This document shows, piece after piece, positions 1 through 60,597 of a stretch of 64,000 bases of DNA. The first letter of the stretch is position 1; every line of letters begins with the position of its first letter. The position numbers and the translations under genes were made by a program. Source of the DNA: Candidatus Parcubacteria bacterium (lineage in GTDB: Bacteria > Patescibacteriota > Minisyncoccia > Minisyncoccales > JAGLUP01); contig JAGLUP010000004.1 in assembly GCA_023134715.1 (NCBI GenBank), positions 1,301-65,300 of the forward strand, in the 5' to 3' direction. The notes beneath the pieces are model-generated. The model was not told where the DNA came from, did no database searches, and saw only the letters and a program-made list of their open reading frames with translations.

Positions 1-3000
1 TTGAGATGACCAATGTCCAAGCTCTTTAAACAAGGCGCAGTCAATGTTTAAATCTCCGCCCGAACTAACATTTACATCGCTTTGATAGCTTGCGGAATTT
101 GTTTCTTCAATAACAGCGTTTCTGGTTAAGTTGATAATATAAGAGCCAGTGACATGAGTGTTGGAAAGATTCCCGGTTAAAGTAATTGTTGTTCCCGAAA
201 CACTTGAAATAGTCATTTTTTCTGATTCTCCGAAAGAGTTGCCGCCAACTCCGAGAATATCACCGGCAACCCAGCCGGTTGTATCTGAAGTTATTAAATC
301 AGCTTGACTTGAAGTAGCGTTTGAAGCAAGGGTTGTTTTATAATAACTAAGAACAGCCCCATACATATTTAAAGCCCCGCCGCTATTAACAGTTAAATCG
401 CAGGCGTCATCAGCGCTTGAATTAAATTTAAGAGCCGCTGTATAAGAAGACCCGATTCTGGCTCCGGAAGTTCCAATGCTCAAAGTCCCTGTAATAGAAG
501 TTGTACCGTTAGTAGTAAGAGAAGTATCAGTACTGTTAAGAAAAGTAAGCGTGCCGCCAGAGTTTATTGTCAAGCTTGAGGAGGTAGCGTTGCTAACATT
601 TACAGTTACAGTATGAGTGTCTAAAATTGTAACATCATCCGCTGAAGTTGGAACCACTCCGCCGCTCCAAGTTGAGGTTGCGTCCCAGTTCCCAGTTTGA
701 GCTGAAGATATTGCCGCGTCCACGGCAATCTGCCACGAACGAAGCTCCTTAAACACTAAACTGTCACTATGAAATTCAAGAGGTCCCAGCAAATATAAGT
801 AGGGGCTGATGTCTGGCGCGTCAAATTGATATTTTAATTCATACTCTTCCCCCGCTTCCCAATCAACCTGCCATATAATTTCTTTTGTATTTTCGTGTGG
901 TTTCGTGTTCAGTTTCGTGCCTGTTTCGTGTACTACCTCAAAGCTCGCAGGCGCACTTTCTATTACCTGCCCGACGAAATCTTCATTCGCCTTAATTTTT
1001 AATGTTACCTCATAAAACGCCGGGGGATAAATCCTTGTCGGCCCGATTCTCTCAACATCAAAAGCAACCGATTCACGAACCTCAAAAGAGTCAAAAATTT
1101 CACGAACGCCGTTTCGGGTAATCGCTGTTAAATAGAGCTCATATAATCCCAACTCATCCGGGATATCATAATATGCATAGTAATCAGGGGTATTGGTAAT
1201 AGTGCTTGGCCCGCATTCTGAACTTCTCTGAATTGTTTCGTCTTCAGTTGAAAATTCCTTCTCAACTCCTGCCGGACTTTTTACTATCAGAGTCAAATCA
1301 GCGTTGCAAATTGTTTTTCCAATATCATCTAGTACTCCCATTTGAATATAAGCAGAGCTGTCACTGCCTGATAGATATATCGACTTGTTTATATTTATAG
1401 CTAAAACCCCCCATGTAAAATCTTGTTCTGAAATCAATATCGCTTCATCAGTTTCAATCTCAATCTCCATCTTCCATTTGCCCGGATAAAAATCTCTTCC
1501 CGGTTTTGGAATTTTTATTTCAAACCCTTGTTTATTATCAATAAATTTAGTAATCACATGGGCTTCAATTAAAGATTCCTGGCCCATAGGGTTAAAAATT
1601 TTAATTCTGAAATTATTCGGTTCTACTTGAGCCGCAACTTGAGGAACAAAAACAATTTTCTTAATTGCTTTTTTCATCGCCCCTATTATTTCCCCGCCCG
1701 CCTGATTGTCCTCAGGACTTTCGGCGGGTTCCGTGGTTGTGGCTATCTCTTCTGTAGTAGTTGCCACTGCTTCCATGGTCTTAGCTTCCTCGCCCGCCTG
1801 ATTGTCCGCCCCGTAGGGAACCGCAGGTTCTCCTTCGGGGTCTGGACTTTCGGCGGGCTCAATAATAATTATTTCATTCTGCGCAGGAGTATCGGTTTCA
1901 AGAATGCTGTCGTCAGGCAAAGCTGGCTCCCCGCCCGCCTGATTGTCCGCAGGACTTTCGGCGGGCTCGCCATCTTCTCGATTAAAAATTGGTTCTAAAA
2001 CATTTTCAATAACTTCTTCAACTATCCCGTCAATAAATTCTTTTATCGGCTCAATTATTGAAGCTGTTCTTGTTTCTTGATTCTTATAAAACTCGCCTTC
2101 TATAATTTCCGCCTCGTTAACATTAACAAGTTCTTGAAGCTGCTTGACTGTAAATTCTGGTTCTTTAATTACAAAAACCGGCTCTTCATTAGAATGAAAA
2201 CTTTTCTCGCCAAGAGGAGAAATCAATAAATGACTATCTTTAATCCTTATTCTTGGCTTGTCTTTTGTGTCGATTTCATGTTTAGTTTCGTTTTCTTTCG
2301 TGTAGCTCGCCTCCACCCAGACACTGTCAAGATAAGCCGTAATATTTGTTTCGCCTCCCACTGTTCCATCAAACTTAATTTTTAAATTTTTAATGCCTTC
2401 TTCACTTTTTAAAAGAGGAGCTTCGTATTCAAAATAGCCATGATTTAAAGCATTAGACAAGGGAGAAGAAGAAATAATCCCGAGCTTATCCCATGATTCG
2501 CCATCTAAGGAATACCAGATAATAATCTTATCATCAATGTTAGATAAAACCTCCGGATGTTCGTCCTCTATATTTTCTTCAGCTTCAACTATTATTAAAT
2601 CTCCAATCCCCTTAACCGCTTCTTCAAATTTGCTTCCCCAAGTTTTAATTCGGCTTATTGATTTTTTGAAAGAATTCCAAAAGCCCACTGGCTCTTCTAA
2701 TAAAATGTCCTGTTCTTTTTCACCAAGAGCAAAAGAAAATTTAATTTTTGCTGATTGAAAAACTTTATTTTCCTGAGCTTGAACTAAACCTATGGAACCA
2801 AAAATATTTTTTAATTCCCTTTTCGCTTTCTCAAAAAATGAAATCGGCTCATCAGAAATTACTGGCTCAGAAATAATTTCATCAGCTGCTTCTATCTCTT
2901 CTGTCGTTGTTGCCTCTATTGTCTCCTCAATAATAATTATTTCATTCTGCGCAGGAGTATCGGTTTCAAGAATGCTGTCGTCAGGCAAAGCTGGCTCCCC

Positions 3001-4047
3001 GCCCGCCTGAATATCTGCCCCGCCTGCATCGCTATGCGAAGCATTGCGGGCAGGAAGATTTTCGGCGGGTTCCGTGGTTGTGGCTATCTCTTCTGTTGTT
3101 GTAGCTATCTCTTCTGTTTCACTGACCTCCTCTATCGCCACATCCTCTTCTACCTCAGTTAATTCTTCCACAAATTCATCAATGCCAGTATCTGTCTCAA
3201 CATCGTCATCACTCAACTCTTCACTGACAAACTCTCCGCATATTAATGTAAGCGCCCCTGTTTTATAAACAGCTGAATTTGCTTCAGAAAAATTATTAAT
3301 ATCTCCATTGGACAAAACATCAGGCGGCCCTTGCGCATTTTCTGAATTTTGCCAACCACCCGTAAATTGAGTCGGATAAAAATTAATAATCTCTGTCTCC
3401 CCTCCTGTAATGGCCGTGATAACAGAATTTTGTAAAAATTTTATAGGAGCAAAACCAGAAAGTAAAAACAATACTACAAAAGCCGCTAAAGCAAATCTCC
3501 AACCAAATTGAAAAGTTTTTATAGTTTTTATATGTTTAATCCACGGGATTAAACAATTTTTAATTTCTGAAATTTGCTTTTTTAATTTTTTAAACGCAAC
3601 TACTTTAAACGCAACCACAGGAATAGGAACTGACACACGTCGGGTCTGTGTTAATTTTAAGGTTTTTCTATTTTTATATTCCATCACTGCTCTTTTTGTA
3701 GTTTGTAAAGAAACTCCAGAATAAGCTTTTCTTCCTTTGAGCTTTCCCTCGCGAATCAAAAAACCAATATAGTCAGAACTATAACCAGAAATTTTTGCCG
3801 CTTGTTTTAAAGAAAGATATCTTCTCCTCAATAAAGAAGAAGAATCTCGGGTAGCGAGATTTTTTGTTTTTTTACAGCATTTTATTATCTCTTTTGGAGT
3901 AATTTTCCAAGAACTTTTAAGAGAAATTTTTCTCCCTTTTATTTTTTTCTCCCGAATTAAAAAACCAATATGGTCAGAGCTATAACCAGAAATTTTTGCC
4001 GCTTGTTTTAGAGAAATATATTTACTTTTTTCTTTGTTTTCTTTCAT
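1..4047 (-). CDS. Giant membrane-anchored surface protein, C-terminus off-window (>=1349 aa)
   Basis: The minus-strand frame appears open from ATG (4047-4045) to the window edge; I translated it only in part by eye. It is probably missing from the ORF track because no stop lies in the window. The N-terminus has two HTH-like repeats (YISLKQAAKISGYSSDHIGFLIREKKIKGRK / YLSLKQAAKISGYSSDYIGFLIREGKLKGRK), then one hydrophobic helix (FGWRFALAAFVVLFLLSGFAPI), then an acidic T/E/D-rich linker. The distal part (SSAQTGNWDATSTWSGGVVPTSADDVTILDTHTVTVNVSNATSSSLTINSGGTLTF) looks like parallel beta-helix adhesin repeats. Confidence 0.8.
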   Translation of the reverse strand, partial: MKENKEKSKYISLKQAAKISGYSSDHIGFLIREKKIKGRKISLKSSWKITPKEIIKCCKKTKNLATRDSSSLLRRRYLSLKQAAKISGYSSDYIGFLIREGKLKGRKAYSGVSLQTTKRAVMEYKNRKTLKLTQTRRVSVPIPVVAFKVVAFKKLKKQISEIKNCLIPWIKHIKTIKTFQFGWRFALAAFVVLFLLSGFAPIKFLQNSVITAITGGETEIINFYPTQFTGGWQNSENAQGPPDVLSNGDINNFSEANSAVYKTGALTLICGEFVSEELSDDDVETDTGIDEFVEELTEVEEDVAIEEVSETEEIATTTEEIATTTEPAENLPARNASHSDAGGADIQAGGEPALPDDSILETDTPAQNEIIIIEETIEATTTEEIEAADEIISEPVISDEPISFFEKAKRELKNIFGSIGLVQAQENKVFQSAKIKFSFALGEKEQDILLEEPVGFWNSFKKSISRIKTWGSKFEEAVKGIGDLIIVEAEENIEDEHPEVLSNIDDKIIIWYSLDGESWDKLGIISSSPLSNALNHGYFEYEAPLLKSEEGIKNLKIKFDGTVGGETNITAYLDSVWVEASYTKENETKHEIDTKDKPRIRIKDSHLLISPLGEKSFHSNEEPVFVIKEPEFTVKQLQELVNVNEAEIIEGEFYKNQETRTASIIEPIKEFIDGIVEEVIENVLEPIFNREDGEPAESPADNQAGGEPALPDDSILETDTPAQNEIIIIEPAESPDPEGEPAVPYGADNQAGEEAKTMEAVATTTEEIATTTEPAESPEDNQAGGEIIGAMKKAIKKIVFVPQVAAQVEPNNFRIKIFNPMGQESLIEAHVITKFIDNKQGFEIKIPKPGRDFYPGKWKMEIEIETDEAILISEQDFTWGVLAININKSIYLSGSDSSAYIQMGVLDDIGKTICNADLTLIVKSPAGVEKEFSTEDETIQRSSECGPSTITNTPDYYAYYDIPDELGLYELYLTAITRNGVREIFDSFEVRESVAFDVERIGPTRIYPPAFYEVTLKIKANEDFVGQVIESAPASFEVVHETGTKLNTKPHENTKEIIWQVDWEAGEEYELKYQFDAPDISPYLYLLGPLEFHSDSLVFKELRSWQIAVDAAISSAQTGNWDATSTWSGGVVPTSADDVTILDTHTVTVNVSNATSSSLTINSGGTLTFLNSTDTSLTTNGTTSITGTLSIGTSGARIGSSYTAALKFNSSADDACDLTVNSGGALNMYGAVLSYYKTTLASNATSSQADLITSDTTGWVAGDILGVGGNSFGESEKMTISSVSGTTITLTGNLSNTHVTGSYIINLTRNAVIEETNSASYQSDVNVSSGGDLNIDCALFKELGHWSSQ
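1697..1728 (+). repeat. GC-rich palindromic element, copy 1 (inside giant ORF)
   Basis: CCCGCCTGATTGTCCTCAGGACTTTCGGCGGG. It has a 6-bp outer stem, an internal loop, a 4-bp inner stem and a triloop. Confidence 0.85.
1793..1857 (+). repeat. GC-rich palindromic element, copy 2 (expanded, nested hairpin)
   Basis: It has the same CCCGCCTGATTGTCC...GGACTTTCGGCGGG termini, with an inserted CCCCGTAGGGAACCGCAGGTTCTCCTTCGGGG hairpin. Confidence 0.8.
1858..1942. repeat. 85-bp direct repeat inside the giant ORF (partner at 2926..3010)
   Basis: The string CTCAATAATAATTATTTCATTCTGCGCAGGAGTATCGGTTTCAAGAATGCTGTCGTCAGGCAAAGCTGGCTCCCCGCCCGCCTGA is identical at both sites. A second ~37-bp repeat lies at 1719-1755 / 3059-3095. 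Confidence 0.9.
1934..1965 (+). repeat. GC-rich palindromic element, copy 3
   Basis: CCCGCCTGATTGTCCGCAGGACTTTCGGCGGG. Confidence 0.85.
3002..3069 (+). repeat. GC-rich palindromic element, copy 4 (divergent, expanded)
   Basis: CCCGCCTGAATATC...GATTTTCGGCGGG with a nested GC hairpin (CCCCGCCTGCATCGCTATGCGAAGCATTGCGGGCAGG). Confidence 0.7.
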
Positions 4048-4157
4048 GCCACATATTTATCTTAAATCTCGAAGTTCGAGATTATCGAGTGCCGAGATTA
4101 TTCTATTTTACCTTGTTTTATAAATCAGTGTCAACTCAATAACTGTGGATAACCTTG

Positions 4158-4212
4158 CCCCGTGAAATCCCTGACATGTCGGGGAAAATCTTTACGATTT
4201 TATTTCACGGGG
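4158..4212. repeat. Three-hairpin GTGAAAT element, copy 1
   Basis: The outer stem is CCCCGTGAAAT/ATTTCACGGGG. It encloses two hairpins, CCCTGACATGTCGGGG and AAAATCTTTACGATTTT. Confidence 0.75.
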
Positions 4213-4320
4213 TCCATCTTAACACAACGATAAAAATGTTAAATAAATAAATATGGCCTAAAAATTACATTGATTGCAAAAAAATCTTCAAAAACGTATA
4301 ATGTATTGTAAAAATAAGCT

Positions 4321-4473: not shown

Positions 4474-4686
4474 TTATTTTACTTCAAAAACTTTGTTTCT
4501 TTCTCTAAACCCTTTAATCAATCTAACGCTCTGATTGGGAAAATGTTCTGCTAAAACTTTAATCACCGCTCTGTTCGCTTCCCCTCTTATGGGCGCCTCT
4601 TTTACTTTTATCTCAAAACTGTCCTGAGATTTTTTAATTATCTCTTGCTTTATTGAATCAGGAAAAACTTTTACTTTTATTAACAT
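4474..4686 (-). CDS. DUF167 / YggU-family protein
   Basis: This 70-aa protein carries ...EAPIRGEANRAVIKVLAEHF...VRLIKGFRERNKVFEV, which fits the YggU pattern (G-x-AN ... G-x-x-x-R-x-K). Confidence 0.75.
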   Translation of the reverse strand: MLIKVKVFPDSIKQEIIKKSQDSFEIKVKEAPIRGEANRAVIKVLAEHFPNQSVRLIKGFRERNKVFEVK

Positions 4687-4774
4687 TAATTAATTTTAAC
4701 ATAAAAATAAAATCCCTCAAAATAATTTTATTTGCTTCGCCACTAATTATTTGATATGATGAAGTTGCAGTCCC

Positions 4775-4853
4775 GGAGCGGGGCGGTAAGTTAATTGGCA
4801 AACTCCAGGACCTGTCACTCTTGGAAATGCGGGTTCGAATCCCGTCCGCTCCA
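4775..4853 (+). tRNA. tRNA-Asp(GTC)-like gene, aberrant (possible pseudo-tRNA)
   Basis: The T arm GCGGG-TTCGAAT-CCCGT, acceptor 3' CCGCTCC, D arm AGTT-AATTGGCA-AACT and loop CTGTCAC (anticodon GTC) resemble bacterial tRNA-Asp. However, the 5' acceptor is duplicated (GGAGCGG then GGCGG). The anticodon stem pairs only if the loop is 8 nt (CAGGA-CCTGTCAC-TCTTG). Confidence 0.45.
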
Positions 4854-5092
4854 ATGGGGCTGTTTTTTTAGTTTTCCCCACATTAGGACTTGACAAAATA
4901 TCTGACTCTGTTACACTAAAAGTAAAAGAGTGACAGGTCAAGTTTGCCAAACGGCTTACTGTAACGAAAGGGTCCTCCTCATTTTGAGAGGTCTCTTTTA
5001 TTTTATTCAAATTTGTATTATAATAATCTTGTAATGCTGCCATATTATTGGTGGCTTTTTGATTCAACAAGATTGCTGAAACATTGACAATC

Positions 5093-5227
5093 TCAAATCC
5101 TAACCACTGCCCTATTTGCCTCCCCTCTTATGGGCGCCTCTTTTACTTTTATTTCAAAACTATCCTGAGATTTTTTAATTATCTCTTGCTTTATTGAATC
5201 AGGAAAAACTTTTACTTTTATTAACAT
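5093..5227 (-). pseudogene. Truncated 5' copy of the DUF167 gene
   Basis: MLIKVKVFPDSIKQEIIKKSQDSFEIKVKEAPIRGEANRAVVRI* is near-identical in DNA to 4556-4686. The similarity continues about 35 bp into the upstream region, so the repeat pair is roughly 4556-4721 vs 5097-5261. Confidence 0.75.
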
Positions 5228-5311
5228 TGATTAATTTTAGCATATAAACAAAATCCCTTAAAGAGTTAAGGGATTTTGTTTATTTCTTAATCTTTCTTTA
5301 TTCTAAAACTT

Positions 5312-9270: not shown

Positions 9271-9374
9271 GAAAACGCAGAAAACCAATTTTCTAAATCG
9301 TGGGGCCCCGCCTTGGCGGGGTAGGGCGCGGTTAGGGGGAAACGATTTAGGAAATTAGGTTTTCGGAGTTTTCG
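9271..9374. repeat. Structured intergenic repeat, family A, copy 1
   Basis: A ~30-bp inverted-repeat stem (GAAAACGCAGAAAACCAATTTTCTAAATCGT / ACGATTTAGGAAATTAGGTTTTCGGAGTTTTC) flanks GGGGC-[CCCGCCTTGGCGGG]-GTAGGGCGCGGTTAGGGGGA. Confidence 0.85.
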
Positions 9375-13270: not shown

Positions 13271-13376
13271 AAAAACGAAGAAAACAAATTTTGAAATCGT
13301 GGGGCATCCCGATAGGTGAAAGCTATCGGGAGGTAGGGCGCGGTTAGGGGGAAACGATTTCAAAATTTAGTTTTCG
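13271..13376. repeat. Structured intergenic repeat, family A, copy 2
   Basis: It has the same arms and the same GTAGGGCGCGGTTAGGGGGAAACGATTT core as copy 1. The apical hairpin is replaced by CCCGATAGGTGAAAGCTATCGGG. Confidence 0.85.
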
Positions 13377-38757: not shown

Positions 38758-39996
38758 TTAGTAGCCGCGAAGTTTTTTTAGTTTTTCGTGTTCTCTGATT
38801 TTTTGAAGGGACTTGGCTTCAATTTGCCGAATTCTTTCTCTGGTAACGCTAAATACCACTCCCACTTCTTCCAAAGTATGAGTAATATCATCCTTTAAGC
38901 CAAACCTCATTGACAAAATCTTTTGCTCACGCGGACTTAAATCAGATAAAATCTCATTCAATCGCTCTCTTAAAAGCTTTCGCGCCGCGCCCAAATAAGG
39001 CGGAGCTGTTTTTTCATCTTTAATAAACTCTGCCAAAACATTATCTTCTTCTTTTTCTCCAACCGGTGTTTCTAAAGAAATTACTTCTTGAGAAATTTTC
39101 ATTATGTGGCGAACTTTGGGAATACTAAGTTCCATCTCAGCCGCGACTTCTTCTGGCAAGGGTTCCCTGCCCAAGCTCTGCAAAAGCTGCTGCCTAACTC
39201 TGGTATATTTAGAAATTGTTTCCACCATGTGAACTGGAATCCGCACAGTTCGAGCGTGGTCGGCTAAAGCTCTGGTAATTGCCTGCCTTATCCACCAAGT
39301 AGCGTAAGTAGAAAACTTATATCCCCTTCTCCAGTCAAATTTTTCTACTGCCCGAAAAAGCCCTAAATTTCCTTCTTGGATTAAATCAAGCATGGTTAAA
39401 TTTGGCGACCGTCCGACATATTTCTTAGCGATAGAGACAACTAATTTCAAATTCCGCCAAATCATTTTTCTTCTTGCTTCATCGTCTCCCTTTTCAATTC
39501 TTTTAGCTAATTCTTTTTCCTCTTTAGCAGTCAAAGATTGCGATCTGCCAATTTCTTTTAAATAAATTTGAATTGGATCTATTTTTGCCCGGCCTATTGT
39601 TTTAACCGGCTTTTCTGAATCTTTTTTTATTTCTAAAAATTCTTTTCTGTCTTTTATTTCAATTCTTTCCTGCTCTAATTTATAATAAAGATCTTCTAAA
39701 TTTTCAATATTTTGTTCTATATTCGGAAAAAAGTTTAAAATTTCGGCAAGAATAACAAAACCCCGCTGCCTTCCCCTTTTAATTAAAGAAGCGACTTTTC
39801 CTGCGTCTAATTCCCGACGGCCTATTCGCTTTTTAGGTTCTGCTTTTTTAAAAACCTTCTTTTTTATTCTTTTCTTTATTGTTTTTTTCTCTACTTTTTT
39901 CTTGGTCGGTTTTAAAATCTTTTTCTTTTTTTGAAGTTTTCTTGCCCGCCTGATTGTCCGAAGGACTTTCGGCGGGTTGATTTTTTTCTTAATCAT
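38758..39996 (-). CDS. rpoD: Primary sigma factor RpoD with Lys-rich N-terminal extension
   Basis: [13 protein letters not shown], region 4 [24 protein letters not shown]. Confidence 0.9.
39945..39976 (+). repeat. GC-rich palindromic element, copy 5 (inside rpoD, different frame)
   Basis: CCCGCCTGATTGTCCGAAGGACTTTCGGCGGG, read here as [11 protein letters not shown]. Confidence 0.85.
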
Positions 39997-41741
39997 ATTA
40001 ATTCTTGTGTTAATTTATTAAACTCTTGAGTCAGGGTCTCAACCTGCTCTTTATTATTTTCTTGCTCAGCTTTTTTTATAGCCAAAGAAATTTGATCTAA
40101 TCTTTTCTTTACTTCTAAATTTTGAATTTCTCTCAAGCAAATTTGTATTTCTTTTTTTGGTTCTTCTTCCTGCTCCAACTCTGCCATTAAACAAAGCTCG
40201 TTTAAAAAATCAGTCAAATGAGAAGGAAATTTTTCAAGCAGGGCTTTATCCTGAAAATTAAAATTTGGAATCTGTTTCAGAATAGATAATATCTCTTTTG
40301 TTTGTGAAGAAAAAAAAGATAAAAACTTTTCCTCAATAAGAGATAAATCCTGCGGTCTTTTTAAAATTAAAGAAATAATTTTTTCTTCCAAAATCTCTTT
40401 CCTGGTTTTACTTGGTTTGCCCTGAACCTCCCGATTTATCGGGATGGTTTGCGGCTTGTCCTCTTGAATTTTCTTCATTTCAATATCTATATCTTCTTCT
40501 TTTACTCCTAATTTTCCGGCTAATTCTTGAATCCAATGGGATTGCTCAATCCGATTAGGAATTCTTTTGATAATCGGCAAAAGAATATTGGAAATTCCTT
40601 TTTTTCCTTCCGGCGTCTGGCAGTCAAATTTAGAAAAAGTGGTTTTAAAATAAAAATCTAAAATAGACAAAGCTTTTTTAATAAGTCCCTCCCATTCTTT
40701 AGGATTTTGAGAAACAACATCTGCTGGATCTTTTCCTTCAGGCATTATCGCTACCTTTATATTAAACCCCTGCGCTTGAGCTAAGTCAATACCTCTCTTT
40801 GTCGCCGAATCGCCGGCAGTATCCATATCAAAAGCAGTAATTAAATTATTAGAATATCTTTTCAAAAGACCTAATTGATATAAAGTAAGGGCTGTGCCTG
40901 ATGTGGCAGCTACATTTTTAAGCCCTGCCTGACAGGATAAAATAACATCTGTCTGGCCCTCAACTAAAATACAAGCGTCTTTTTTCCTTATTTCCATTTT
41001 TGCTTTGTCTAATCCGTATAAAATTCGGCTCTTATCATAAAGCAATGTGCTGGGAGTATTCACATATTTTCCTTGCCCATCTCCCTCCTTGCCAAATGTC
41101 CTGCCGGTAAATCCAACCACCTGACCGCTTAAATCAAAAATAGGAAACATTATTCTTGCCCTAAACCTATCATACCATTTTACAGCGTCTTTTTTTATCG
41201 CTAATCCAGATTTTTCAATCTCTTGTCTTTTATATCCTTTGCCTACTAAAAAATCAGAAAGGCCCTGCCATGTTTCTGGCGCGTAGCCAATCCGCCAGGT
41301 CTCAATGCTTTTTTCGCTTATTCCTCTATTTAAAAGATATTCTTTCGCTTTTTTTCCAACCTGCCCCGCTTCCAATTGTTTCTCAAAAAAACTACAGCTC
41401 ATATCGCAAATTTCATAAAGCCGCTGACGCTCTGTTACTAATTTTGGGTCTATTTTCTTCAGCTGAATCCCGGCTTTTTGAGCTAAAATGCGCAAAGCAT
41501 CGCCAAACTCTACTCCCTCAATTTTCATTACAAATTTAAAAATGTCGCCTCCTTCGGAACATGACCCAAAACAATGCCAAAGCTGGCGGGACGGAGAAAC
41601 AAAAAAAGAAGGATTTTTTTCTGAATGAAAAGGACAAGGCGCCCGAAAATTAATCCCGGCTTTTTCCAATTTAATATAGCCGCCAATTACCTCAACTATA
41701 TCCAGCTTATTTTTAATTTCTTCAATCGGCGAATTAATCAT
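39993..41741 (-). CDS. dnaG: DNA primase
   Basis: Zinc finger [11 protein letters not shown] and TOPRIM EGQTDV...DMDTAGD. Confidence 0.9.
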
Positions 41742-42301
41742 TATTTTTGATTTCTGGAAAAATTAGAAATAATTTTTATCTGGCCGTTGGGGACATAATG
41801 TTCTACTCCTTCTAAATCTTTAATAGTTGTCTTTCTTAAGTTTAAATTTTTTACCTCTCCATTAATCCCTGCTATTTTCACTTTTTCCCCTACTCTATAC
41901 TGATCCTCAATTATAATAAAAAGCCCGGACAGATAATCCTGAATAAGACCTTTTGCTCCCATGCCAAAGGCAAGGCCCATTACTCCAATACCTGCGAGAA
42001 GCGGCGCAATATTAATCCCAAGCTCAGGCAAAATCATCAAACCCGCAGCCAACCAAATCACAACTTTTAGAGCAGAACTAAAAACATTTTCTAAGGTCTT
42101 TTGTCTTTCTTCTTGAATCTTATTTTCGTTTTTCCCCGCCCTTATTAAATAACTTTTTTTAATAAAACCCTTAATTACTTTTAAAATAAAAATTCTTCCA
42201 TAGCGAATAGCTAAGTTTGCGGCAAATAAAATTAAGACAATCTTAATGCCTGAAGAAAAAAACCAGAGAATCAAATTTTGAAAAAAATTTTCTAAAATCA
42301 T
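41741..42301 (-). CDS. Small MscS-family mechanosensitive channel protein
   Basis: LIQDYLSGLFIIIEDQYRVGEKVKI...G.V..L.LR.T. Confidence 0.75.
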   Translation of the reverse strand: MILENFFQNLILWFFSSGIKIVLILFAANLAIRYGRIFILKVIKGFIKKSYLIRAGKNENKIQEERQKTLENVFSSALKVVIWLAAGLMILPELGINIAPLLAGIGVMGLAFGMGAKGLIQDYLSGLFIIIEDQYRVGEKVKIAGINGEVKNLNLRKTTIKDLEGVEHYVPNGQIKIISNFSRNQK

Positions 42302-42339
42302 ATATTTAAAGTTAAAACTAATAATTAAATTTAATTTAT

Positions 42340-42837
42340 TTAATTTTTTGAGTATTCTATTTGGTCGGGACTGGCTCCTTTCAAAATTTGGTCCACCATT
42401 TCAACTTCTTCCAATAATCCTTCTACCAAATCATAATTTTTCGCCTCTTCATAACTCACCCACTTATAATCAATATTCTCTTCATTTAATTTTACTTCTC
42501 CGGATTTATAATCACAATAATAACTTAAAATTATACACGGAATTCCGCTTGGCAGAATAAAAACCATATCTACAAGATATTTTAGTTTTCCAACTTCCAA
42601 ATTTACCTCTTCTCTTATCTCCCTTCTCAAAGATTTTTCTATGACAAAATACCAAATATCAGAAGTGGTTTTAGGTAAATTAATATAATCATCTACTTCC
42701 AGTCCTCCGCCCGGCACTGCCCATTTTCCAGGAAAAGCTTTTTTATCCAAAGCCCGACGGGCAATTAAATACTTGCCATCTTTATGAATAATAGCCGTAG
42801 AAGTAATCCGATGCAATTCTCTATTTTGAATTTCCAT
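42340..42837 (-). CDS. NUDIX hydrolase
   Basis: The Nudix box is ...GGGLE...SLRREIREEVNLEV. Confidence 0.7.
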   Translation of the reverse strand: MEIQNRELHRITSTAIIHKDGKYLIARRALDKKAFPGKWAVPGGGLEVDDYINLPKTTSDIWYFVIEKSLRREIREEVNLEVGKLKYLVDMVFILPSGIPCIILSYYCDYKSGEVKLNEENIDYKWVSYEEAKNYDLVEGLLEEVEMVDQILKGASPDQIEYSKN

Positions 42838-42879
42838 AAACAAAATTTTAAACTTTCTAAATTTACCCTGCCATACTAT

Positions 42880-43550
42880 TTACAGCTCGCCTTTGATTTC
42901 TTTTTCTAATCTATCTAAAAAACTTTTGTAAAATTTCATTCTTTCTTTGCAAATCTTCTTTGCTTGTTTTGTGTGCAATTTATCTATCAAAAATTTCAAT
43001 TTAGTTTCAAATTCTACTTGTGGACTATGTTTAGTTGTATCCTGTATTCGGCCATTAATTTTCCCGCCAAGATTATCTTTAATATATTCATCAATATCAA
43101 CATCAGTATATATTTTAGCGTTGTTTTTACTAATCCACAGAAACGCGCGAGCAACTCCAATCGCGCCCAAAGTGTCTAACTTGTCCGCGTCAAATAAAAT
43201 TTGGCCTCTATAGTTTTTGCTTTATTCCCTGTTCTATATCTATGAGAAATAATACAATCTTGAATATGTTTTATTTTATCATCTGAAAAACCTAATTTCT
43301 GTAAAATTGGAACCGCCATTTCTGAACCAACTATTGCATGATCTGTATTTCCAGTGGGATCATTGTCTTCTTTAACTCTCGCAATATCGTGCAATAAGGC
43401 AGACGCTTGAAGAACGTCTAAATCAACATTTTCATTTTCAGCAAGACGCAGGCATAGATTATAGACTCTCATAATATGATCCATGCTGTGAGCAGAACAA
43501 GAAAGCTCTTTCTCAACCACCTCTTTTATTTTTTGAAATTTTTCATCCAT
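42880..43550 (-). pseudogene. HD-domain phosphohydrolase interrupted by a -1 frameshift
   Basis: ORF 43176-43550 (SALLHDIAR, HD motif) ends as ...IEAKFYLTRTS*. Shifting one base at GCCAAATTTTATTTGAC (~43185) restores (A)K-ILFDADKLDTLGAIGVARAF, which joins ORF 42880-43170. Confidence 0.7.
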
Positions 43551-43650
43551 TTTTTATTTATTTATCTTTAATATCAAAATTTAAGCTCGCAAATCACCTG
43601 TTTTTCTGACGAAACGACAAAGCTGTACATTTTTTAAGGACTATCAAAAA

Positions 43651-44001
43651 TTACCTCCCGCATTCACTTTCACATCGATGAATTTCGACAACATCGTTTT
43701 TGTAATCTTCTAAACATTTTTCAACACAAAATTTACATTCTTCAAATTCTACCTTCTTAACTAATTGACACCTTCCCTCAATAATCTCACAACTAACATA
43801 TTGGCGACAGCGGTCGCCAAGCATGTACATCATTGTACATTGTTTCGGAACATTGGGTCCGCAGGTAATATCAAGGCCATGACAATTTTCTATCCCGCAT
43901 TTATGCAGAGATGAACTACGAAATGAAAATATAATAACAGCCAGGACAATTAATAATACAGTAGCTGAAATTCCATAAAATAACTTTTTGCTTTTTGTCA
44001 T
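43651..44001 (-). CDS. Membrane-anchored cysteine-rich small protein
   Basis: An N-terminal TM helix and 12 Cys in about 85 aa. Confidence 0.5.
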   Translation of the reverse strand: MTKSKKLFYGISATVLLIVLAVIIFSFRSSSLHKCGIENCHGLDITCGPNVPKQCTMMYMLGDRCRQYVSCEIIEGRCQLVKKVEFEECKFCVEKCLEDYKNDVVEIHRCESECGR

Positions 44002-44216
44002 AAATTTTATTTATACTATTTTAATAATTTTTTATCTTGTGGTTTTTCTAAATAATTTCTCTTTGATGAAACTGACTTGCCGCTCTTTTTTTCTAAATCT
44101 CTTCTAATTTCAGTTGTCGGCAAAATGTCGATAATTCAATTTTCAAATATAACTTTTGTAATTTGTGTGAGTAATTTGTAATTTGGGATAAATTTTTACT
44201 AACGCAAAAATTTATG

Positions 44217-44301
44217 CGGAGAGGGAGGGATTCGAACCCTCGATACCTTGCGGTATACCGCCTTTCCAAGACGGGGCACTCGGCCACTATGCGACCTCTC
44301 C
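44217..44301 (-). tRNA. tRNA-Ser (GGA)
   Basis: A type II tRNA: acceptor GGAGAGG/CCTCTCC, anticodon arm CCGTC-TTGGAAA-GGCGG, a long variable arm, and T arm GAGGG-TTCGAAT-CCCTC. Confidence 0.9.
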
Positions 44302-46303: not shown

Positions 46304-46440
46304 GAAAACGCAGAAAACAAATTTTTCAAGGCGAAAATTCTGTATTTTCTGAGACGCGTAGGGCTCCCTCCCGATAGGTGGAAGCTATCGGGATGGGATA
46401 AAGCGCGAAGAAAAGACAGAATTTGAGCAAGAAAAATTTT
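46304..46440. repeat. Structured intergenic repeat, family B copy 1 (preceded by a family-A-like arm)
   Basis: GAAAACGCAGAAAACAAATTTTT (the family A arm), then GCGAAAATTCTGTATTTTCTGAGACGCG-TAGGGCTCCCT-[CCCGATAGGTGGAAGCTATCGGG]-ATGGGATAAA-GCGCGAAGAAAAGACAGAATTTGAGC. Confidence 0.85.
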
Positions 46441-60489: not shown

Positions 60490-60578
60490 GCGAAAATTCT
60501 GGATTTTCTGAGACGCGTAGGGCTCCCTCCCGCCTTGGCGGGAAGGGATAAAGCGCGAAGAAAAGACAGAATTCGAGC
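60490..60578. repeat. Structured intergenic repeat, family B copy 2
   Basis: It has the same backbone as 46331-46428. The apical hairpin is replaced by CCCGCCTTGGCGGG. Confidence 0.85.
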
Positions 60579-60597
60579 AATGAAAAAAAAATAAACA

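Follow-up and report, generated by a model that had tools for sequence, protein, structure and literature searches.

The rpoD gene of a Candidatus Parcubacteria bacterium, which encodes the primary sigma factor, carries close to its start codon a 32-nt palindrome that recurs in a giant surface-protein gene elsewhere on the same stretch of DNA (64,000 nt of contig JAGLUP010000004.1, referred to as the window). This sequence is probably a dispersed, structured palindromic DNA element, comparable to repetitive extragenic palindromes (REPs) and Rickettsia palindromic elements (RPEs), that was inserted in frame into rpoD and is tolerated and translated there. Identical nucleotides and flanks occur in rpoD in another reading frame, so the nucleic acid, and not the peptide, is the conserved entity. 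Near-identical copies in many unrelated genes of other genomes bear out the suggestion, made in an earlier note on this DNA, of a single DNA element set into unrelated genes, and a dispersed element at the level of DNA is the fitting category. A family of small palindromic elements within housekeeping genes of Candidate Phyla Radiation (CPR) bacteria has apparently not been described so far, and the searchable literature contains no description of such elements in Patescibacteria. Intragenic translated palindromes have been discussed mainly for Rickettsia and a few REP-rich bacteria, and the element would be an analogous but distinct case from the CPR. The phenomenon is conceptually known; what stands out is its conservation across lineages, its frame bias, and a two-frame example in a primary sigma factor.

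Sequence, fold and copies in the window

The 32-mer CCCGCCTGATTGTCCGAAGGACTTTCGGCGGG is found as an exact match on the + strand at 39945-39976, 20 nt into rpoD, where the earlier note had placed it. A search of the 64 kb allowing up to three mismatches returned just two further matches, both on the + strand, at 1697-1728 (two mismatches) and 1934-1965 (one mismatch), and the differences from the rpoD copy are confined to the 3-nt loop; the chance expectation of such matches, from 100 dinucleotide-preserving shuffles, is 0. Reading the sequence added two longer copies with the outer arms CCCGCCTGA...TTTCGGCGGG, at 1793-1857 (65 nt) and 3002-3069 (68 nt), in which additional GC-rich hairpins are nested within the loop. 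A covariance model run over the whole 64 kb with filters off found no copies beyond these five, all of which are antisense to minus-strand genes. The features concerned are as follows.

1..4047, minus strand: 5' part of the giant gene, at least 1349 aa, with HTH_17 at the N-terminus and a G8 domain at about aa 1126-1240; the gene runs off the window start
1697..1728, plus strand: element copy with loop TCA, translated PAESPEDNQAG
1716-1773, plus strand: 58-nt segment carrying the element right arm, duplicated at 3057-3114
1793..1857, plus strand: nested copy of 65 nt, a 33-nt net increase over the 32-nt form, translated PAESPDPEGEPAVPYGADNQAG
1858..1950, plus strand: 93-nt segment carrying the element left arm, duplicated at 2926-3018 (97% identical)
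1934..1965, plus strand: element copy with loop GCA, translated PAESPADNQAG
3002..3069, plus strand: diverged nested copy of 68 nt, with the same outer arms, a changed internal loop and a different nested hairpin, translated PAENLPARNASHSDAGGADIQAG
38758..39996, minus strand: rpoD, primary sigma-70 factor, 412 aa, Sigma70 r1.1-r4 (Pfam r1.1, r1.2, r2, r3 and r4 in homologues)
39939..39978, plus strand: extended element, the core with flanks TTCTTG (5') and TT (3')
39945..39976, plus strand: core 32-nt hairpin in orientation CCCGCCTGATTG...CTTTCGGCGGG, antisense to rpoD, whose mRNA has CCCGCCGAAAGUCCUUCGGACAAUCAGGCGGG
39993..41741, minus strand: dnaG (primase), whose TGA stop overlaps the rpoD ATG (ATGA) and anchors the rpoD start

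In the predicted fold of the 32-mer, an outer stem of 6 bp is followed by a 1-nt bulge, 2 bp, a 2x2 internal loop, an inner stem of 4 bp and a triloop; the predicted energy as sense RNA is -18.3 kcal/mol (z = -4.3), and the nested copies are predicted to form single continuous hairpins of -40 to -45 kcal/mol (-45 for 1793-1857). G.T wobbles, counted to tell which strand folds, number about 5 on the + strand against 1 on the other, too few to decide. Searches of Rfam gave matches to the element at chance level only (E > 1), with only tRNAs reaching gathering scores in the window, and no match at the elements or double hairpins of six element-bearing loci. The GC skew of the window is strongly negative (about -0.2) and relaxes only at strand switches at 16.8-19.5 kb and 55.5-61.6 kb; nearly all genes from 5.3 to 55.4 kb lie on the minus strand, and the skew follows the coding strand and therefore gives no independent indication of replication direction.

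The copies in the giant gene sit in acidic linkers, where the two 32-nt forms read PAESP(A/E)DNQAG, and they are surrounded by the 93-nt and 58-nt repeats listed above, whereas the rpoD copy has no such long shared flanks. These flanks indicate that the giant-gene copies arose by duplication of segments or by recombination, and do not stand for four independent insertions. The earlier note was right that the giant gene and rpoD hold the same element in the same orientation, but the giant-gene copies do not count as four separate events.

The rpoD copy and the empty site in relatives

The element begins 20 nt past the A of the rpoD ATG, spans codons 7-18, and encodes a basic stretch of 12 residues within a Lys-rich N-terminal extension of RpoD that covers codons 1 to about 61. 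The translations of the open reading frames (ORFs) agree with the earlier observation that the same DNA is read in another frame in the giant gene, and the same bases in two frames offer a natural test of DNA-level against peptide-level constraint. Several features place the rpoD copy inside the gene. The dnaG/rpoD ATGA overlap at 39996 recurs in three relatives (L033, L035 and L038; public loci are given as L with a number), and in a fourth, L037, the called genes overlap by 7 nt. Codons 2-80 contain no in-frame ATG, GTG or TTG, so none is available ahead of conserved region 1.1. Every RpoD homologue opens with a Lys-rich extension from the first Met, several of them with MIKKK, and the GenBank entry MCK4781752.1 is an identical 412-aa RpoD product. 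Judged by these features of the sequence, the rpoD copy is within the coding sequence, in the only usable reading frame, and would be translated as part of RpoD.

It follows from the missing alternative starts, the ATGA overlap and the MIKKK opening that the start of rpoD does not lie downstream of 39945, the circumstance that the earlier note had named as fatal to its claim. The broader possibility that the rpoD copy is non-coding, either because a downstream start makes it a 5' untranslated region or a dnaG-rpoD intercistronic structure, or because ribosomes bypass it, is in our judgement very improbable and largely refuted. A stable hairpin 20 nt past a start codon is unusual, and many N-terminal 'intragenic' REPs may be misannotations (Di Nocera et al., PMC3733652). 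Against this stand the absence of in-frame starts in codons 2-80, the retention of the ATGA overlap and of MIKKK in relatives, the Lys-rich extension that begins at the first Met in all homologues, and a frame that is preserved through the element, as it is in every other host.

The DNA around the rpoD copy was also recovered separately: the Logan contig L039 is 100% identical to window positions 39958-44242, a span that takes in dnaG, the start of rpoD and the hairpin's first half. The reproduction of the hairpin junction in a separate Logan assembly argues against an artefact of a single assembly, with the reservation that both assemblies may draw on the same reads. Synteny also agrees with that of relatives, and the suspicion of an assembly artefact that the earlier note had raised against itself finds no footing. 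L039 itself terminates in the hairpin loop, at window position 39958. Palindromes of this kind probably fragment de Bruijn assemblies of these genomes at element sites, and we flag the element as a cause of broken contigs and of the odd 'low-complexity' inserts met with in annotated CPR proteins.

A comparison of RpoD N-termini in related genomes, which the earlier note had proposed as a check, gave alleles that lack the element. In L033, whose RpoD is 81% identical, the site is empty and reads MIKKK-LQK, against MIKKK, 14 further residues and KLQK in the window; this bare site supports the view that the element was inserted into the Lys-rich extension. The closer relative L035 (RpoD 93% identical in amino acids across the 86% that aligns; rpoD core 88% identical in nucleotides) also lacks the element and carries a different, Y-shaped palindromic element a few codons away, and the Nealsonbacteria-type RpoDs of L037 and L038 have yet other GC-rich palindromes in the same extension. 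The presence of different palindromes in L035, L037 and L038 marks the RpoD N-terminal tail as a recurrent landing site. At the rpoD site of the window, the AAG/AAA Lys-codon context is too repetitive to call a target-site duplication.

Two side observations concern these other palindromes. The Y-shaped element belongs to a second palindromic family, with an outer stem CCCCGTGAAAT/ATTTCACGGGG around two inner hairpins; it occurs in the window at 4157-4214, where it is intergenic and upstream of the giant gene, and at L035 811-872, where it lies in frame in the RpoD N-terminus and encodes HPVKSPTSRGISPKAKLFNRV. A composite GC-rich palindrome, about 66 nt long and bordered by near-identical direct repeats GACCCACCCGCC / GACACCCACCCACC, distinguishes the RpoD N-termini of L037 (1580-1690) and L038 (1585-1630); the difference could have arisen by insertion with duplication of the target or by slippage.

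Because the rpoD copy is followed on the + strand by a run of T, reading GGCGGGTTGATTTTTTT, and because TTTTTTT or TTTTTTC follows the copies in L002, L005, L012 and L021, the element could also be seen as an intrinsic terminator, or other block to transcription, of antisense transcripts. We regard this as very unlikely. Most copies in acidic contexts have no T-run, a scan for consensus terminators calls nothing at the rpoD site, and T-richness is expected from the antisense of Lys and Glu codons in a genome of 35% GC. On the sense strand the sequence continues CAAGAAAACUUC, and the T-run is found on the antisense side only.

A wider family in Patescibacteria-type genomes

Public sequences were scanned with an exact-arm pattern in one genome per GTDB species, which gave 8 loci among the species representatives, and with a metagenome pattern in which the inner stem was left free, which gave 24 loci. 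Both patterns fixed the outer stem and the asymmetric internal loop, and of the 32 bases 23-29 had to match exactly. The loci have a GC content of 35-50%, with two outliers of high GC. Long ORFs contain all five copies in the window and the majority of the roughly 30 public loci; the hosts, assigned by Pfam or by reading the ORFs, include the following.

NusA: C-terminal tail, three species
L7/L12: N-terminus, three species
TrwB/TraD-like ATPase: C-terminal tail (L005, L021, L014)
L22 and S16: C-terminal tails, double hairpins
SerRS: tip of the coiled-coil arm (L018, L022)
Trigger factor: after the FKBP domain (L025)
Large surface proteins: linkers (L006/L027, L008/L016, L023)

The copies in identified hosts lie outside the domain cores recognised by Pfam or at the coiled-coil tip, in keeping with the earlier proposal that the insertion is tolerated; the window's own SerRS is without the element. 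The element would thereby provide a concrete route to new peptide segments in the hypervariable tails and linkers of CPR housekeeping proteins, the sigma factor included.

At about 12 of 13 independent intragenic sites the element has one orientation and is read in the same frame, which gives PAESPxDNQAG (the PAES frame); the frame bias alone has a binomial p of about 2e-5 at 1/3 per frame, and rpoD is the sole solid case of a different frame. A search for the peptide words in a collection of 5.8 billion proteins returned 2 candidates for four non-PAES frames and 7 for the PAES frame, counts that are uninformative on frame frequencies since a positive control recovered almost no known hosts and the search is thus too insensitive for 11-aa motifs. 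Nearly all copies encode the same peptide, as would be the case if a peptide module were the unit of conservation. The rpoD copy, however, has the same nucleotides in a different frame, the synonymous positions are all identical across genomes of 35-50% GC, and the stem covaries as a palindrome. Chance, with its expectation of 0, and assembly error, in view of the junction in an independent contig and the shared synteny, fare no better, and the difference in frame together with the identity at the nucleotide level refutes an explanation by peptide module or chance; any explanation of this group is scarcely credible.

The covariation is seen in the inner stem, which varies with full compensation among GTCC/GGAC, GCCC/GGGC, GGCC/GGCC and versions of 6-7 bp. 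Among copies of the 38-nt class, all 6 of the varying pairs are changed on both sides and 96.7% of cells are paired, compared with 32-48% in slid controls; none of 500 shuffles reaches the observed values of the paired fraction, the covariation score or the number of cells with both sides changed. No variation is seen in the outer stem or the asymmetric internal loop among the copies recovered, in part because the search patterns fixed those positions. The flanks lay outside the search pattern, and TCCTYG (5') and TT (3') are kept in about 20 of 24 non-redundant single copies; the rpoD copy retains TTCTTG...TT although it is read in another frame. The consensus unit is thus about 33-40 nt long and can be written TCCTYG-CCCGCC-TGATTG-[variable stem-loop]-CTTTC-GGCGGG-TT. 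It comes in lengths of 32, 38, 65 and 68 nt, to each of which one conserved flanking base (the 33rd) is added, and the steps between these lengths are multiples of three. In many metagenome copies a second hairpin, CCCGCC-CAAAC-[stem]-GATTGT-GGCGGG, directly precedes the first, making a module of about 70 nt that encodes 25 aa.

Copies at orthologous sites in NusA and in L7/L12 of different species are 94-100% identical, while the flanking coding DNA is 45-82% identical, a difference inflated by the ascertainment of loci through exact matches. A possible, though less likely, explanation is that the element is a functional cis-element under purifying selection and more than tolerated junk: a site that some conserved factor of Patescibacteria recognises, either as structured RNA or as single-stranded DNA, with a role, for instance, in the processing or stability of mRNA or at the level of DNA. 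Its place in coding sequence would then follow from the scarcity of intergenic space in these compact genomes, its translation would be incidental, and an origin by insertion is compatible with this explanation. Much of the pattern agrees with it. The orthologous copies in the three NusA and three L7/L12 species differ in the loop or by one inner-stem substitution; a synonymous third-codon base (the 33rd nucleotide, C of GGC) and the TCCTYG flank are conserved though not searched for; the inner stem shows compensatory change, and the asymmetric loop TGATTG/CTTTC is constant among copies selected for those bases; the orientation relative to the host gene is nearly uniform; the hosts are largely highly expressed information-processing genes; and the genome encodes RNase J. 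Other observations count against it. The estimate of conservation is biased, since the loci were found by exact matches to 23-29 of 32 bases; the hosts and the positions within them (N-terminus, C-terminus and internal) are heterogeneous; there is no Rfam match and no known partner protein; and some copies have diverged and are decaying (L023 and window 3002-3069). Close relatives lack the rpoD copy, so a cis-element cannot be essential there. That the 33-40 nt hairpin is a functional nucleic-acid module kept in core genes (NusA, L7/L12, L22, S16, SerRS, trigger factor and RpoD), with a peptide that is merely harmless and with the rpoD copy a recent recruitment in another frame, seems rather doubtful to us; if true, it would define a class of dual-coding cis-elements specific to ultra-compact genomes. 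If the conservation at orthologous sites holds under unbiased sampling, it would point to a hairpin-recognising activity not yet known in these organisms.

The strict element pattern had 0 matches in viral contigs, and a looser pattern had 1, in a high-GC phage tail-fibre-like gene and without an inner stem, which is probably due to chance. Copies in high-GC contigs lie at L028 397-625 (Ga0180431_10012433, 67% GC), where two tandem hairpin copies are accompanied by related double hairpins, and at L009 9497-9530 (61% GC); the family may not be confined to low-GC Patescibacteria, unless these are look-alikes of other origin. At L017 619-684 and L030 2458-2523, a double hairpin lies, by reading of the sequence, between two convergent ORFs. 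One of these ORFs, which looks TruB-like by eye, appears to stop at a TGA within CCCGCCTGA, and the ORF on the opposite strand appears to stop at a TAA of the loop (…PAESGE*); on this reading, the two ORFs would owe both their C-terminal tails and their stop codons to the element.

Mode of spread and comparison with known systems

Taken as a translated palindromic insertion, the element would enter genes as DNA through a hairpin-dependent, REP/RPE-like process, and its spread might be driven in trans by an enzyme encoded elsewhere. Copies may also rearrange by mutual recombination, acting as portable homology, as the giant-gene flanks suggest. Selection would retain only insertions whose length preserves the frame and whose peptide fits the local context: the acidic, disordered PAESPxDNQAG reading would be favoured in nearly all hosts, and the basic 12-residue reading in the polybasic tail of RpoD. 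Of the mobile or recombinogenic hairpin proposed in the earlier note, dispersal and insertion hold up, while movement itself is deduced from distribution across genes and genomes, with neither a transposase nor a clear target-site duplication to accompany it.

Several observations weigh against an insertion of this kind. First, copies with exact arms are few, with 3 in one 422-kb contig (L016 and L025). Second, one orientation and frame at about 12 of 13 sites requires strong selection or a directional mechanism. Third, the roughly 60 ORFs of the window (on a contig of at least 391 kb) include no transposase, HUH/Y1, GIY-YIG, HNH or Nop domain that could indicate a mobilising enzyme, and no REP-associated tyrosine transposase (RAYT) or IS200-IS605-type Y1 transposase. 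Fourth, no convincing target-site duplication is found, the Lys codons of rpoD being too repetitive to call one. Fifth, the element is without the GTAG or CGTC tag of known REPs. Finally, the identity at orthologous NusA and L7/L12 sites, search-biased as it is, appears to exceed what simple selfish decay would leave.

The element is most readily compared with RPEs, which are palindromic, lie in frame in protein-coding genes, are translated, and measure about 100-150 bp (PMC10969869). Both are palindromic repeats in frame in unrelated, often essential genes of small AT-rich genomes, translated as extra segments in permissive parts of proteins and present in several related species. For the element, the frame is kept in rpoD and in all identified hosts, which suggests translation from the open frames. 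RPEs form the families RPE-1 to RPE-10 of Rickettsia, with tens of copies per genome. The element, by contrast, is found in Patescibacteria, where a genome has only a few exact copies; its core measures 32-33 nt and its double-hairpin form about 66-75 nt, and its inner stem varies, with covariation, and can take up nested hairpins. The separation from RPEs rests on size and taxon as given in the description of RPEs.

REPs provide the second comparison. Intragenic GTAG/CGTC REPs are found at the N- or C-terminus, and their dimers encode 20-30 aa (PMC3733652). REPs and their paired forms (REPINs), which RAYTs mobilise, share with the element imperfect GC-rich palindromes of 20-40 nt with a conserved bulge or mismatch and a short conserved motif at one end, and occur, as it does, as singles and as inverted or adjacent dimers. 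With 3 canonical and 2 nested copies in 64 kb, the element fits the description of a repeated palindrome of this size. However, none of the 24 non-redundant copies has GTAG or CGTC, the end motif being TCCTYG, and in place of the extragenic location and high copy number of REPs the element is mostly intragenic in our sample and low in copy number, with one orientation and frame dominant. It is therefore similar to both RPEs and intragenic REPs but lacks defining features of each. What sets it apart is a very short, modular and frame-preserving form, a mostly intragenic location, and near-identity between genomes whose GC content ranges over 35-50%. Miniature inverted-repeat transposable elements have terminal inverted repeats around an internal region of about 50-500 bp, together with a target-site duplication; here the whole element is one 32-nt hairpin, and the direct repeats TTG, CTCG and TTCG flank some copies, inconsistently.

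Mitochondrial GC clusters, double-hairpin elements and the fungal 'byp' elements are short GC-rich hairpins dispersed in AT-rich genomes, also in coding regions, and can be nested. These elements are organellar, and the byps are skipped by ribosomes and need not preserve the frame. Unlike byps, the element has length classes that differ by multiples of three and host ORFs that stay open, which points to read-through translation.

A further comparison is with the stem-loop tigRNA units of TIGR-Tas systems, which are flanked by palindromes, occur in Patescibacteria and Staskawiczbacteria, and are found in frame in disordered regions (bioRxiv 10.64898/2026.09.09.750476). Like the element, they are palindrome-flanked RNA-like units of CPR genomes able to sit in frame in disordered parts of proteins. 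A TIGR-Tas unit comprises two 14-nt intervals (box C, a 9-nt spacer and box D) and a loop, at least about 37 nt within the stem, and the described intragenic units lie within tas itself (bioRxiv 10.64898/2026.09.09.750476). The element has only 20 self-complementary nucleotides inside its outer stem, no dual spacer or box C/D anatomy, and no tas gene beside or around it; the window holds no Nop/Tas gene, and the copies are scattered in housekeeping genes and not in arrays. That the hairpins are tigRNA units is thus extremely improbable. An analogy with the Rfam motif PAGEV, taken as a coding-region RNA named for its peptide, was dropped because the paper shows a plasmid-associated motif.

Small genes of the GIY-YIG type were also considered as partners of the element. 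Intergenic double-hairpin copies come to within about 20 nt of such a gene's start codon at L019 2560-2660, where a tRNA-like fragment is also present just upstream, and at L031 3930-4110, with orientation differing between the two. The link is kept as a lead only, as the orientation is inconsistent, most element loci have no such gene, and the window has none. Other small GIY-YIG genes (84-92 aa) occur near rpoD at L033 13330-13700 and L038 2740-3090. Upstream they have a copy of the first 28 nt or so of a tRNA, interrupted by a GC hairpin, and downstream the same tRNA sequence, complete in L033, where the ORF runs into the tRNA. These two loci look like tRNA-targeted mobile cassettes.

The window holds other repeats as well. 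Two pairs of intergenic GC-rich scaffolds, at 9285-9350 with 13290-13365 and at 46335-46420 with 60495-60580, have the structures AAATCGTGGGGC-[hairpin]-GGTAGGGCGCGGTTAGGGGGAAACGATTT and TCTGAGACGCGTAGGGCTCCCT-[hairpin]-GGGATAAAGCGCGAAG, and the members of a pair differ in their central hairpin, for which both pairs use the same two modules, CCCGCCTTGGCGGG and CCCGATAGGTGRAAGCTATCGGG. No Rfam family reaches threshold at these scaffolds; they could represent structured RNAs not yet described, or else a further family of modular repeats. At 4551-4721 and 5092-5262, a direct repeat of 171 nt (90% identical) overlaps the 5' part of a DUF167 gene and its upstream region. The two repeats bracket a tRNA-like gene at 4780-4853, called by ARAGORN as 'tRNA-???' with the abnormal anticodon 'gt', an arrangement that looks like an insertion that duplicated its target.

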